Below are positions 18,489-44,847 of a DNA stretch of 64,000 nucleotides, piece after piece. Where the stretch lies: the NCBI RefSeq assembly GCF_032062105.1, contig NW_026922202.1, positions 1 through 64,000 on the forward strand, written 5' to 3'. Positions within the stretch are counted from its first letter, which is position 1, and each line of letters starts with the position of its first letter. Below the pieces are notes generated by a model that did no database searches, was not told the origin of the DNA, and saw only the letters and a program-made list of their open reading frames with translations. The position numbers and the translations under genes are program-made. This DNA comes from Saccostrea cucullata. Taxonomy: Eukaryota.

Positions 18489-19556
18489 TTATGTTTCTTC
18501 ATCTTCTTCACTAGAACTCGAAGTCAGAGATTCAAGGAAGTCAATGTTAGCGTTATGGCTCACGAGAAGTTCTGAAATATCGGAGCGCTGGCGCTCAACT
18601 GCTACCATTAGGGGAGTTACACCATTGTACATCTTCTTGTCTATGGAGATTTTGGGTTGCTCTAATAATGACGAAACAATGTCTATTTTGTTGCCTTTAG
18701 TAGCCAAATGTAGGGCGGTCGCGCCACTTTTTCCATCACCGACGTTCACATCAGCTCTTGATTTCAAAAGAATGTCTACAATTTTGGTGAATCCCCCAAG
18801 AACGGCTACATGCAAACAAGTGTAACCTTCATAGTTCCTTACATCGAGATTTTGAATAGCTCGCGATTCTCGGTGTTTCAGAATTTCTTTTACCATGGTA
18901 ACGTTTCCAGACCGACATGCAATATGAAGTGCCGTGTCCCCGTTGTGGTCAAACATTTCGGGATTAGCACCATTGTCTAATAAAAGTTTGACAATCTCGA
19001 CCTGTTTCATCAAGACGGCAAGATGTAACGGCGTTTGCCTGAGCTTGTCGTTGTAAATATCTAAGCACTCAGTCCATGGCGCCACTTCTATGAACACCTT
19101 TGCCAACATGACATGTCCTGAAATTATTGCAAGATGGAGGAGGGTGTCCCCATCTGCGTCCCTCCCATATATCAAAAAATCGTCATCCGTGAATTTCTCC
19201 GACTCCTCCTCGCCTTTCAGATCAGTTTCTGGTACGGAATCGCATATTCCTTCGTCTTGATCCTTCGTACATGTAGTACCAAGAGTCAATTTTTCAGAAA
19301 ACTCTATTACATCTATTTCCACAGATTCGTCTACCGTTGGCTCTCGTTTTTGGGATTGTTTCAAAATTTGATCTCGAATGTCTGTAAGGCAGCCACTATC
19401 TTGGGATGTAATGGAGGCTCCGAGACCAGGGTCCGAATCGAATCTCTCCTCAGACTTCAGTTTGTCCAATCTCCCGTCTGATGGTCCAAATTTATGGAAG
19501 TTGTCAGCAGGCATAGGCCCTGCACAGCAGTCCTCTTCAAGATCATTAACGTCCAT
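18489..19556 (-). CDS. IkB: NF-kappa-B inhibitor (IkB/cactus family), intronless CDS, 355 aa
   Basis: N-terminal DSGCLT degron-like motif; six ankyrin repeats (GDTLLHLA, QTPLHLA, GDTALHIA, GYTCLHVA, GATALHLA, GVTPLMVA); acidic PEST tail SSSSEEDEET. Confidence 0.93.
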   Translation of the reverse strand: MDVNDLEEDCCAGPMPADNFHKFGPSDGRLDKLKSEERFDSDPGLGASITSQDSGCLTDIRDQILKQSQKREPTVDESVEIDVIEFSEKLTLGTTCTKDQDEGICDSVPETDLKGEEESEKFTDDDFLIYGRDADGDTLLHLAIISGHVMLAKVFIEVAPWTECLDIYNDKLRQTPLHLAVLMKQVEIVKLLLDNGANPEMFDHNGDTALHIACRSGNVTMVKEILKHRESRAIQNLDVRNYEGYTCLHVAVLGGFTKIVDILLKSRADVNVGDGKSGATALHLATKGNKIDIVSSLLEQPKISIDKKMYNGVTPLMVAVERQRSDISELLVSHNANIDFLESLTSSSSEEDEET

Positions 19557-19644
19557 GTTTAGCTGTGTAGAAACTGTTTATCTCAGTCGAATGTTCAAAA
19601 TTAAAGAATACAATTCAAATCTCGCAAGTTATGTACCGCTTCGG

Positions 19645-19776
19645 CTAAATTCCCAAGGAATACTGTTTTCGTTTCGATGGACTTTCCACCCAACGTAGAA
19701 ACTGGAAATTTTCAATCTAACAAAGACAACGCACAAAGGGACTTGTGCGATAGGGAATTCCCGTTTGGATTTCCCC
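19645..19776 (-). promoter_or_regulatory. IkB promoter kB-site cluster with an ISRE-like element
   Basis: GGGAATTCCC (19753-19762), GGGGAAATCC (rc 19767-19776), GGAAATTTTC (19704-19713), GGAAAGTCCA (rc 19678-19687), GAAACGAAAAC (rc 19665-19675). Confidence 0.75.
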
Positions 19777-20329
19777 GTCGATGTGACCTAGATATTTGCA
19801 GCGAGCGGCGGTTGTCGGCAGTCATACAGCGTATCGAACTTTAACATATATCGTTATTTTATCGAAATAGACTTTTTTTCCTGATGAGTATATTTTAGTT
19901 TTACATAAAAAAATTTTAAAAAGATAAAAAGAATATTATTGTAACCGGTAATTTTGACTTCCGAACAAATTATAAATTAATGGAAATTACATGATTAATA
20001 CATTAATCGTACGAAAAATATTTTTCTTTCATGAATTTCAAAATTGCTTCATTTAATATCACATTAATGAGGAAATCCATTGGCATTAGCAACACCTTAA
20101 TTATTTGCTTTGTATCTGTTATATTTAGCATGTGGGCGAAATCGTCTTTTACATATTGCATATATATATAAGTAATTTAATAATCCGGTAATCAATACCT
20201 ATGCGTACGTCAGCCTTTTAAATACATATATAGCCCGTTCTTTTGATATACATTATGTAAGCTTCTGTAAGCTGATTTCATCGACCCTGATCATTACACG
20301 AAAGCAAAGAACCAGAAAATATAAATAGT

Positions 20330-42400: not shown

Positions 42401-42962
42401 TGGTGGGTTTGTGAGAATGAAGGAAATCCATGGCGGACGAGACCTCCATCAGAAACCTCACATACAGGGGGAACTGAGGGGAGAATTGCTTACGGAAATC
42501 AATGAGACTCCCGAGGGGCATATACTCTAAAATGAGGGAGTAATTGTCTCTCTGCATTATCAGGCCATATAAATGAAGAATACCATCATGTTCACAGAAC
42601 TCCATTAACTTCTTGGCCTCTGCTTGCAGCACATTTAAATGCCTGTATATATAAAAAGATTGGTTAAAGTTTTCTCCGTATTCAAACCATTAAATTAAAA
42701 AGTTGCTCAAGAAATATAACTGTTGTTTCAAAATTCTAAACAATATAACACTGCTCAATTTATTGAAAAAGAAAGGCAAAACCTTTTTAATGAATTCTTA
42801 CTTTTTTGGCAGTTGTCCATAGTTTATCAAGGTTTTCACTGCAACATGACCATATTCTCTGTGTTTTCCTCTGTATACTGTACCATATCCTCCCCTACCT
42901 ATTGGAAGGCTCTCTAGTTCTATCTCGCTCTCATCAACTATAGGAATGCTGACTTCAGACAT
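36460..42962 (-). CDS. RIPK-family (TKL) Ser/Thr kinase, ~745 aa; exons 42962-42802, 42642-42342, 42102-41889, 41570-41424, 41033-40936, 40700-40034, 39927-39729, 39396-39304, 37586-37384, 36614-36460 (alternative donor after 36529)
   Basis: IGRGGYGTVY, VAVK, HLDLKADNILL, SDFGLS, VPPE, DIYSFAICVWEMLTG, RCWHQKPVQRPSF; all junctions GT-AG and in frame; AATAAA at 36328-36323. Confidence 0.85.
37161..37360. mobile_element. MITE (TACTGTATACAGGG-type TIR); second copy at ~46170-46378
   Basis: ACTGTRTACAGGG...CCCTGTATACAGT termini in both copies. Confidence 0.65.
38040..39118 (+). repeat. Helentron-type element carrying a ~179-bp tandem array (~5.5 units) plus a (GACT/GACG)n microsatellite
   Basis: TGTGTCCTAAATA recurs at ~38228, 38402, 38587, 38765, 38945; microsatellite at 39021-39090. 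Confidence 0.85.
41121..41402. mobile_element. MITE with long TIRs; related diverged copy at ~35333-35632
   Basis: TCAATTCCAGTGAAGTGTACCATTTTGC ... GCAAAATGGTACACTTTACTGGAATTGA. Confidence 0.7.
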
Positions 42963-44596
42963 GGCTACAAGGATTCTGAATCGGAACAAAAACTTGTTGT
43001 TGATCATGTTGATATCAATTTTAAAAAGGACCAAATTAATTATTACACATTACAACTTTGAATTCATGCACAATGAAATGTTGAGTTACCAGAAATTATG
43101 AATTAGATTTGAATTTTAAGGTGTGCAACATATGTTCTAGTCTTGGGTTCCAGAATCCTCTAGCCTGATAAGATTTTCACAGTCCTACCAATAGCATCTT
43201 TGACAATTATACTGGTCACCTGAAAATAACATGCATCTCTTATCAAGCTACTGTTTCAGTGCTGTATCTTAACCTACATATCTCTAACTAAAATTACTTT
43301 TTAATATCTTAACTCTTATAGATGGCATATACTCTATATTAACATTATTCTGAAAGTTGTTTGGTCCAAATACCTTGACATTTATGCTACAAAATTTTAC
43401 CTGTCTAAATTTTTATTAAAAAGTGTTTAATTTTAGGTAAAATTATATTTAAGTTCATTGGATTTACCATTTGTCACGAACCTGTTTGTATTTTAAATAA
43501 AAACAGGTTTTTATAATGGCTTTAACTTTTGCCAGTTTTGGCATTTTCTTTAGTTTAACATTTTTCATCGCTTAACGAGGCCCAATCTAGTTGGATATTA
43601 CGAAAACGGAATGATAAAAAATTCTGATTCTTGGAAATAAATTTGTATGTATTATGCTAAGAAAAATTAGAATGAAATTTTGTTACATTGCCTTTATTGT
43701 AGTCAAATGGGGGCACTTTCAAGATATGGACCATTTTTCGTGTTTTTATACACAATTACATACTAAAACTCCTCAATAAACAAAGGAATTGACAAATTAA
43801 AAAAAAATAAATGATGAAATATTTTTATTTTCACATATATCATGCAATTCACATCCCTCTTTTAAAAAATGAAAAGAAAATTAGGTAGCCTTTATTGCAG
43901 TGAAAAGGGGGCATATCAAAACACAAAAATAGGACTTATTTTATCCAACTATAGCTAGTATTTTATAAGTTGCAATAGGTCAGCTTTATATAACATCAAC
44001 AAACGATTGTAATACTGTATAAGTTTCTAAAAATTAAATCATTCTTACATTATGGCATAATTTTCTCTTTATGCTCAATAAAAATGGTGCGTATAAACAC
44101 TTCAATGTTCGAGGAGAAAGACTAAAATCGTTTACTTTTGGTTACAGTTAGATTTTTTTCTAACTCACAAATTGAAATAAAACAAGATAAAATTAATGAA
44201 TCTGTTCCAAGAAATTGATACCTCAAAATAAATTATGTTTCAAAGTTGTTATTAATTTAAAAGTAATAAAACGCCAGAATGAGCCAGCTTTCAACAAGCA
44301 GTCTATAGAGCAAGAGCAAGATCCGCGAAATATTTTAGCGCAATTTGACGTCATTTTAATTGTGACGTTATTGTGTTCAATTGTGACGACAGTCAAGGGT
44401 ATTGTGACGTGTCTGAGTCGACGCTGCGTTAAAACGTATGCGCAGATCAACTAGATCGGGCCTCGTTAAAAGATAAATAAAAAATAATGCATCCAAAAAA
44501 TAGTATAATACAAACCAGTACAAATTAATGTTGTCATAAACAGTACAAGAGATCAACAAAATTGCTATCACAGTGACAGTTCCTTTCACATTGCAC

Positions 44597-44847
44597 TGGA
44601 AAATCCCCTTACCTATTTATAACTCAAGCACATATCCGTTTAGAATTAGTTTTTGGCAAAACGCATAATACTAAAAATACTTTTAATTTGAATTTAAAAA
44701 TTTGAAATGAGAGTATTTTTAATGAAATGGAAGATTACATTTTTTAATATTTCCCAATTTATTTTGAAATTAACTAAATCGTAAATTTTTGTTTATGGAT
44801 ATTTAATCTTCGTTTCTTTAAAAACGTATGTCCTTAATTTATCAAGC
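44597..44847. promoter_or_regulatory. Candidate bidirectional promoter for the RIPK-like gene (-) and NUDCD1 (+)
   Basis: Minus-strand donor ATAG|GTAAGG at ~44613 followed by kB site GGGGATTTTCC (rc 44598-44608); NUDCD1 ATG at 44848. Confidence 0.5.

Follow-up and report, generated by a model that had tools for sequence, protein, structure and literature searches.

In Saccostrea cucullata, two adjoining genes, one encoding a RIPK1-type kinase and the other a short IMD-like adaptor, probably derive from a single gene for RIPK1, a kinase of immunity and cell death, that was split in the oyster lineage, with the adaptor predicted to act as a kinase-free activator of the IMD type and a neighbouring IkB likely serving as an induced brake. 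The three genes lie within the window, i.e., the whole stretch of 64,000 nucleotides that was analysed (contig NW_026922202.1, positions 1 to 64,000). A preliminary description had presented them as a clustered NF-kB module composed of a RIPK kinase, an IMD-like adaptor and an IkB, and these identities were right: the three genes are real, their location on the minus strand was confirmed by ORF, exon and RNA-joint models, and each of the motifs quoted was found at its position. Nevertheless, the kinase and the adaptor are likely better explained as two parts of an ancestral RIPK1 than as pathway genes brought together, in which case only the adjacency between RIPK1 and IkB needs explaining.

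The coding sequence of the kinase (36721-42962, minus strand), delimited by joints in RNA of a related species, gives a protein of about 699 amino acids with a kinase domain, a helical middle region and a Met-rich tail. The catalytic motifs VAVK, HLDLKADN and DFG are present, and the tree, the alignment with scallop and the structure all showed a RIPK1-type kinase domain, its fold being nearest to human RIPK1, with RIPK2 and RIPK4 close behind. The middle region (about residues 385-613) is also found in scallop and gave no Pfam or clear fold match, with no usable match in the Atlas and a best Z of 3.5 for a partial model (166 aa, pLDDT 66); a similarity to STI1/DP repeats that we had presumed was unsupported. 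The short ending of the protein is backed by 16 and 21 reads and conserved across genera. A longer isoform of 862 aa uses a low-complexity terminal exon with the stop at its end (31181-31602, minus strand); its spliced model is identical to the RefSeq protein (P0006), and RNA contigs span 30891-31602. This exon may be what is left of the RIPK1 linker. In PMC12119088, RIPK1 is defined by a kinase, a RHIM and a death domain in one chain. Neither RHIM nor death domain was detected in the 699- or 862-aa isoforms, and both were found in the adjoining adaptor gene.

Four exons of this adaptor gene (26066-26034, 25917-25830, 25232-25071 and 23182-22914, minus strand) give exactly the RefSeq protein of 183 aa. 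The last one (22914-23182) encodes a RIPK1-type death domain (Pfam Death, E 5e-11) whose best PDB match was human RIPK1 (E 7e-12), followed by TRADD (E 2e-3). The preceding exon (25071-25232) encodes PNIQIGDQNFM, where IQIG at residue 61 was unscored by Pfam and fits the published RHIM core tetrad (PMC13506858). Further upstream, the exon at 25830-25917 carries IETD/ARPG, a predicted caspase-8-type site in which IETD15/A16 is invariant in the seven aligned oyster sequences; a D/A motif has been described in IMD (PMC6626034). Exon 2 (26034-26126), with the ATG at 26066, is open throughout in frame and has phase 0. Judged from its sequence, the adaptor appears to have the layout of IMD, with a C-terminal RIP-like death domain without kinase, a RHIM-type motif and, in the N-terminal part, a caspase site with alanine after it. 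One 183-aa adaptor sequence of Magallana was found on 262 contigs.

The main evidence for the split comes from the scallop Argopecten irradians, whose RIPK1 (XP_069112941, 1144 aa) has kinase and Death in one chain. This protein aligns with the oyster kinase at 46% over 596 aa (E 7e-170), middle region included, and its tail aligns with the oyster adaptor at 32% over 146 aa (E 1e-21). By tblastn, its residues 8-596 were located on the kinase exons and its residues 988-1143 on the adaptor exons, colinear on the minus strand. Because kinase and adaptor match one scallop protein in order, a split RIPK1 likely accounts for most of the so-called cluster. The oyster kinases were sister to XP_069112941 (SH-aLRT 100) in a quick tree of 35 rows, and the D/A site is located 46-50 residues ahead of the RHIM in oysters, in the scallop tail and in abalone. 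A sequencing contig of 3771 bases (P0213) also translates into the joined form, which is thus not only a gene model, and the presence of this form in Mactra and Lingula points to the joined state as ancestral. No joined form was detected in oysters in what were weak negative searches, where the five death-domain matches were all 183-209 aa long and none of the four kinase matches had Death. Scoring 64 of the 454 kinase candidates of the genome revealed no second RIPK1 whose death domain is closer, and no description of such a RIPK1 split or of these gene numbers was found in the literature, on which subscription papers may bear.

A short gene could also be older than the oysters: the mollusc ancestor would have had a full-length RIPK1 and an adjacent short IMD-like 3' copy, and oysters would have retained the short gene while their kinase lost its tail. 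We consider this improbable. Abalone ("protein immune deficiency-like") and apple snail do have short proteins with D/A site, RHIM and death domain, and a 277-aa protein of the same layout (P0359) scored high, but the best non-oyster profile scores were mostly those of long-kinase tails (100, 88 and 85 bits, versus 61 and 54 bits for the named snail proteins), no named short paralogue of scallop appeared among the 10 matches looked up, and two events are needed versus one for the split. Trees of the RHIM-death-domain region (63 and 25 rows), for which 59 of the 150 listed matches (21 in the small tree) were kept as covering the RHIM region, did not separate the sister group of the adaptor; holding it with scallop gave a p-AU of 0.35, and with the short abalone/apple-snail group a p-AU of 0.49, values by which the older short paralogue stays unrejected.

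The probability that the locus still works as one RIPK1 gene, with an internal promoter, early stops and a full-length isoform produced in some tissues or during infection by splicing over the HMG gene, is in our opinion even lower. The halves are colinear on one strand, phase 0 is common to donor 36528 and acceptor 26126, exon 2 of the adaptor has no stop, and an upstream extension of the adaptor of 26 residues stays open in two Saccostrea species. Against this, RefSeq models the two genes separately in S. cucullata and S. echinata, they have distinct accessions in M. angulata, no kinase-adaptor joint was found among the 15 joints listed out of 90, and two annotated genes separate the halves in the Pacific oyster. 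Rare read-through splicing from the kinase to the adaptor exons may occur. Between the two genes of S. cucullata there is an intronless HMG-box gene (32385-33596, plus strand), antisense and nested within the last intron of the long kinase isoform; its Pacific oyster orthologue is annotated as HMG box-like, and we take it to be TFAM-like.

With kinase and adaptor taken as a split RIPK1, the linkage to IkB was considered separately. The order of kinase, adaptor and IkB is kept in three oyster genera, so the conservation of linkage that had been proposed as a check was confirmed for oysters only, as judged by accession and gene-number order. In the Pacific oyster the kinase orthologue is gene 58 and that of IkB is CGI_10017654 (343 aa). 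On the other side of the locus, a NudC-domain gene (ATG at 44848, plus strand), named after the Pacific oyster neighbour CGI_10017659, is head-to-head with the kinase and shares its upstream region. Other IkB-like paralogues had no such neighbours among long ORFs within 20 kb in a coarse test, and a linkage of IkB to RIPK1 was not found described in the literature. This linkage is likely a long-standing gene arrangement of oysters whose members are all mildly inducible.

The IkB gene (18489-19556, minus strand) is a single ORF of 355 aa. Proteins of the IkB-alpha/cactus type are defined by an N-terminal DSGxxS/T degron and an acidic C-terminal tail, and both were found here, as a degron-like DSGCLT at residue 53 (DSG or ESG in 8/8 oyster rows) and the tail SSSSEEDEET, flanking an ankyrin array detected as five to six stretches of Pfam Ank. 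Its promoter (19557-19856) was scored against the kB consensus GGGRNWYYCC and compared with shuffled sequence. A perfect site, GGGAATTCCC at 19753, and sites with one mismatch at 19678 and 19766 gave three sites with up to one mismatch, for a shuffle mean of 0.25 (p=0.004); when the two-mismatch sites at 19644 and 19704 were counted, the cluster (19644-19776) reached five sites (p=0.06). This promoter is therefore enriched in kB sites, but the number of at least four that had been quoted depends on two-mismatch sites. The promoter of the other allele is identical at 358 of 360 bases, and a cross-species promoter search by metagenome scans with the adaptor and IkB alignments confirmed nothing. 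From these features, the IkB adjoining the RIPK1 genes likely acts as an NF-kB-induced brake, with inhibition of Rel as its predicted activity. In the Pacific oyster, PMC4872224 lists IkB as up under LPS plus enkephalin.

The first exon and core promoter of the kinase (44516-44621, minus strand, donor 44515) contain a perfect kB site at 44598-44608, just below TATAAATA (44621-44614), at a frequency exceeding that of shuffles (p=0.002); such perfect sites were present in 2.5% of 408 background tiles. The site had been placed just inside the first intron, a location ruled out by RNA of a related species (mostly 85-99% alike), in which nine reads in three runs join 42975 to 44516, the first donor seen being 44515, so the site is upstream of intron 1. 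No reads of this RNA were found at 44611-44792. Intron 1 itself holds a MITE-like multi-copy element with terminal inverted repeats (43572-44469) and loose RNA ends at both borders.

In the case of the adaptor, the putative first exon or promoter (27039-27090, minus strand, donor 27038) showed an IRF-like AAACCGAAAGT at 27071-27081 and a putative kB-like site at 27052 with two mismatches, and no site with up to one mismatch. Consequently, the proposal of kB sites at all three 5' ends is sustained for IkB and the kinase but not for the adaptor. The GGAAATTTTC quoted for this promoter occurs five times in the window. The 13-mer shared with the IkB promoter is indeed at both places, but it occurs 219 times in the genome, stretches of at least 13 bases were common to 1.1% of 3000 random tile pairs, and the other allele has lost it while keeping AAACCGAAAGT, which rules it out as a conserved element.

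These data bear on the initial idea that activator and inhibitor form one immune locus, kept together and jointly controlled by Rel/IRF, an idea compatible with the split that we find rather doubtful. In its favour are the gene order kept in three oyster genera, the kB sites of IkB and kinase in excess over shuffles, and a Pacific oyster data set where, 0.5 day after poly(I:C), the three orthologues belonged to the 840 genes that changed, out of about 26,400 rows, the gene number of the adaptor orthologue being assigned by position only. However, they rose only 1.2-1.7-fold (log2FC 0.2-0.8) versus 4-fold to over 60-fold for the top genes, and the non-immune neighbours NudC (0.29) and KIF15 (0.46 at day 10) rose too; moreover, the adaptor has no good kB site, the 13-mer is lost in the other allele, and the other IkB-like paralogues, in the coarse test above, are without such neighbours. 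The linkage in oysters and a slight co-rise are thus supported, but selected co-regulation as an immune locus is not shown, because the induction was small and common to NudC and KIF15. The supplements of PMC6182001 had no rows for these genes.

According to the split that we favour, the break in RIPK1 would have occurred in the disordered linker just ahead of the caspase site, the kinase half acquiring a stop and the 3' half a separate first exon. Recruitment of the adaptor would depend on its death domain or its RHIM, and a caspase-8-like protease would cut it at IETD/A, which is predicted to expose an IAP-binding-like N-terminal alanine. Through this alanine the cut adaptor would bind an IAP ligase and become ubiquitinated, leading to activation of IKK and Rel, and Rel would then induce IkB through the kB cluster of its promoter. 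The G at the fourth position of ARPG presumably may make a poor IAP-binding motif. As reported in PMC12119088, a kinase-free C-terminus of zebra mussel RIPK1 activates NF-kB in a RHIM-dependent manner.

Descriptions of IMD have long likened it to a RIPK1 lacking the kinase. With halves that are adjacent in oysters and orthologues that are joined in scallop and in clam, it becomes directly testable how RIPK1 could give rise to an IMD-type adaptor, and the split would separate the scaffold and kinase roles of RIPK1 in a group of farmed animals. It also implies that automatic names mislead oyster immune studies, as "RIPK1-like" is the kinase-free adaptor and "RIPK3-like" is the kinase. According to a 2023 paper, no Imd adaptor had been found in molluscs (PMC9835746).

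Compared with RIPK1 of human, Argopecten (XP_069112941), Lingula (XP_013410819) and zebra mussel (PMC12119088), the oyster genes show a canonical RHIM tetrad and the same order of parts, and kinase fold and adaptor death domain are both nearest to human RIPK1; the differences are the presence of two genes, the kinase without RHIM and death domain and, with respect to the human protein, the extra helical middle region common to scallop. The oyster IkB resembles the IkB-alpha/cactus feedback in its degron-like motif, ankyrin repeats, acidic tail and kB cluster, the gene itself having no unusual features. The short IMD-like proteins of gastropods (Haliotis XP_046375274 and Pomacea) have the same layout as the adaptor, with VETD/A 47 residues ahead of the RHIM; gastropods may have lost the kinase half, since an Aplysia survey found no RIPK orthologue (PMC9334734). 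Like insect IMD, the oyster adaptor is short and kinase-free, with an N-terminal xxxD/A, a RHIM-type motif and a RIP-like death domain, and its language-model look-alikes are arthropod-rich death-domain clusters. Its origin may well be independent of IMD, because the adaptor falls together with tails of bivalve RIPK1 and short proteins of snails (91/90), and not with those of LTTDA type, in a tree that leaves its deep branches open. We tentatively propose that oysters keep an intermediate toward an IMD-type adaptor, in which RIPK1 was split before the caspase/IAP site, the halves remained adjacent, and the kinase-free half, in linkage with its IkB brake, would signal to NF-kB from an inducible promoter of its own; the short proteins of gastropods and the IMD of arthropods would represent parallel cases where the kinase half was later lost. 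Unlike IMD, where the RHIM is cryptic, the oyster adaptor has a canonical IQIG, and its kinase half still adjoins it.

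The gene order from 18 kb in the window (C4339:1-64000 of a 1.17-Gb assembly) is IkB (-), adaptor (-), HMG-box gene (+), kinase (-), NudC-domain gene (+), DUF218 (-; a weak match, E 0.04) and kinesin (+), and the gene models of IkB, adaptor and kinase bear out the preliminary description in placing all three pathway genes on the minus strand. The IkB gene (18489-19556) is a single ORF of 355 aa with ankyrin repeats, and three more IkB-like ankyrin ORFs with no evident introns were found elsewhere (C12760:421669, C20813:168570 and C20813:171144), two of them in tandem and one with a perfect kB site around 560 bases upstream. 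The four coding exons of the adaptor, a kinase-free RHIM-death-domain gene (within 22914-26066), reproduce a 183-aa RefSeq protein, and an alternative first exon (26903-26886, minus strand) that carries a separate ATG gives a 209-aa isoform in two Saccostrea species. In the RIPK1-type kinase gene (CDS 42962-36721) nine introns were placed by RNA joints of a related species, 15 of the 90 joints being listed. One of its exons has a 100% match in a Saccostrea cucullata RefSeq protein. The long RefSeq kinase isoform has its terminal exon at 31602-31181, so the intronless HMG-box gene (32385-33596, plus strand) is nested in the kinase gene; it lies within the region of the likely RIPK1 break, and its sole other genomic match is an intronless ORF on C8714, 30% identical. 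At 10468-14061 (-), an uninterrupted ORF of 1198 aa with endonuclease and reverse transcriptase domains corresponds to a non-LTR retroelement, and nothing on the contig of the other allele matches this stretch.

The favoured reading of the cluster is that of a RIPK1 gene, probably split in two, next to the IkB gene. The adaptor death domain matched human RIPK1 (E 7e-12) far better than TRADD (2e-3) and FADD, and a profile search gave 163 matches; among the 150 listed, several of the best non-oyster ones were proteins of 740-1180 aa matched at their tails. One of these, P0213, encoded on a 3771-base sequencing contig and clustering with Argopecten irradians XP_069112941, aligned with the oyster kinase (46% over 596 aa, helical middle region included) and with the adaptor (32% over 146 aa); when it is aligned to the window, residues 8-596 map to the kinase exons and 988-1143 to the adaptor exons, on one strand and in order. 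A 35-row kinase tree placed the oyster kinases as sister to P0213 (SH-aLRT 100), the joined kinase-death-domain form was also found in Mactra and Lingula, and the predicted kinase fold had human RIPK1 as its top match, with RIPK2 and RIPK4 close. In oysters, all five death-domain matches among 78 candidates were only 183-209 aa long, with no joined form, none of four kinase matches among 2388 candidates carried a Death domain, and the short kinase ending is kept across genera. Kinase residues 385-613, helical and common to the scallop RIPK1 and a 1009-aa protein, gave no Pfam match and no clear fold match. In AU tests on the RHIM-death-domain tree, neither the grouping of the adaptor with scallop (0.35) nor that with a short snail group (0.49) was rejected. 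Rare read-through splicing may also still join kinase to adaptor, since adaptor exon 2 has no in-frame stop and its phase agrees with that of a kinase donor, and the joints listed are 15 of 90.

The microsynteny raised in the preliminary description is borne out within oysters, where the RIPK1-IkB gene order is kept as judged from accession or gene-number order. In S. echinata the kinase (XP_061163408/410), IkB (414) and adaptor (415/416) belong to the same accession series on one 69.7-Mb sequence. An accession series is likewise shared by the kinase XP_052712487 and adaptor 493 in M. angulata, and by IkB XP_048756083 and adaptor 095 in O. edulis. In the accessible supplements of PMC6971885 and PMC7064767, the Pacific oyster v9 run, which is an order of identifiers and not of coordinates, comprises genes 54 (IkB, with published primers matching the orthologue), 55 (hypothetical, 321 bases, the adaptor by position only), 56 (HMG box), 57 (TRIM3-like), 58 (kinase, 1833 bases, as long as K1R9G5), 59 (NudC) and 60 (KIF15).

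Every motif quoted earlier was found; kB sites exceeded chance at two of the three 5' ends. Scored against the consensus GGGRNWYYCC, with 1000 dinucleotide shuffles for comparison, the IkB promoter (300 bases ahead of the start) has one perfect site (p=0.010) and three that deviate at no more than one base (p=0.004), the "at least four" of the preliminary description being reached only at up to two mismatches (five sites, p=0.06). The kinase region has one perfect site (p=0.002), whereas in the adaptor region none with at most one mismatch was detected. Among 408 background tiles, which take in repeats and the tested promoters, 2.5% had a perfect site and 1.2% three near-perfect ones. As far as sequence can tell, the sites at IkB and kinase are real. 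One kinase intron contains a tandem repeat with a 179-base unit (38052-39012); multi-copy in RNA data, the repeat carries several perfect kB-like 10-mers and shows that such sites can arise easily here. The 13-mer shared by the adaptor and IkB promoters is present as quoted, but it has 219 genome copies (89 for the reversed control), 1.1% of random tile pairs (n=3000) share at least 13 bases, and it is broken in the second adaptor allele; the IkB promoter alleles are identical at 358 of 360 bases. The IRF-like AAACCGAAAGT of the adaptor promoter is retained in both alleles, and the window has 11 occurrences of its pattern. Local duplications of 230-440 bases occupy 27197-28793, immediately upstream of the adaptor; the other allele differs across this stretch, and about 150 bases of shared adaptor promoter remain.

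Nine reads in three runs, from the related species, span a GT-AG junction between 42975 and 44516, and none of its reads falls at 44611-44792; therefore the kinase kB site, previously assigned to the first intron, lies upstream of the first donor seen, beside a TATA-like box. Because the RNA comes from another species, a further upstream kinase exon, unseen in it, is possible. The kinase and NudC-domain genes are head-to-head, with starts about 250 bases apart (44621-44848), and after poly(I:C) in Pacific oyster each shifts by about 0.3 log2, consistent with a shared promoter.

In the accessible data of PMC7064767 (Pacific oyster, poly(I:C) versus seawater at 0.5, 1 and 10 days), log2 fold changes were 0.56, 0.75 and 0.42 for IkB and 0.33, 0.78 and 0.39 for gene 55 (p<0.05 throughout for both), 0.31, 0.21 (not significant) and 0.33 for the kinase, and 0.29 (p=0.045), 0.28 and 0.29 for NudC, with no change in HMG and TRIM3-like. 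KIF15 reached 0.46 at day 10. The 840 genes changed at 0.5 day (same source) include all three of the pathway, which favours some shared response, although the effects are small and spread to neighbours. Of the single co-regulated immune locus proposed in the preliminary description, the gene order and the kB sites at IkB and kinase stand, and the data argue weakly for coordinated control. Going by its 343-aa length, the Pacific oyster orthologue of the window's IkB is probably the gene named IkB2. The accessible part of PMC4955271 reports that IkB2 tracks viral load.

Neither the split nor the RIPK1-IkB linkage turned up in the literature searched. In the parts available, an Imd adaptor is said not to have been found in molluscs (PMC9835746), oyster RIPK1/RIP1 is listed by annotation only (PMC8917759, PMC4892480) and no RIPK was found in Aplysia (PMC9334734); one abalone protein already carries the NCBI name "immune deficiency-like". 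The adaptor RHIM core is canonical as defined in the available text of PMC13506858. According to PMC12119088, in human cells a C-terminal portion of zebra mussel RIPK1 that lacks the kinase activates NF-kB in a RHIM-dependent manner, and by analogy we infer that the oyster adaptor may be a free-standing version of such a scaffold. It would be recruited via its death domain or RHIM, cut at a predicted D/A site, bound by IAP and ubiquitinated, and would then act through IKK on Rel, with IkB closing the loop through its kB cluster. The adaptor starts just ahead of IETD/ARPG, invariant in seven of seven oyster rows; in oysters, abalone and the tail of the scallop protein a D/A pair precedes the RHIM by 46-50 residues, scallop having a second site (LETD/AAPP) farther up, and several other aligned rows have no such pair. 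In insects, as described in the accessible part of PMC6626034, DREDD cuts a D/A site and exposes an IAP-binding end, and the oyster IETD/A resembles that site in sequence.
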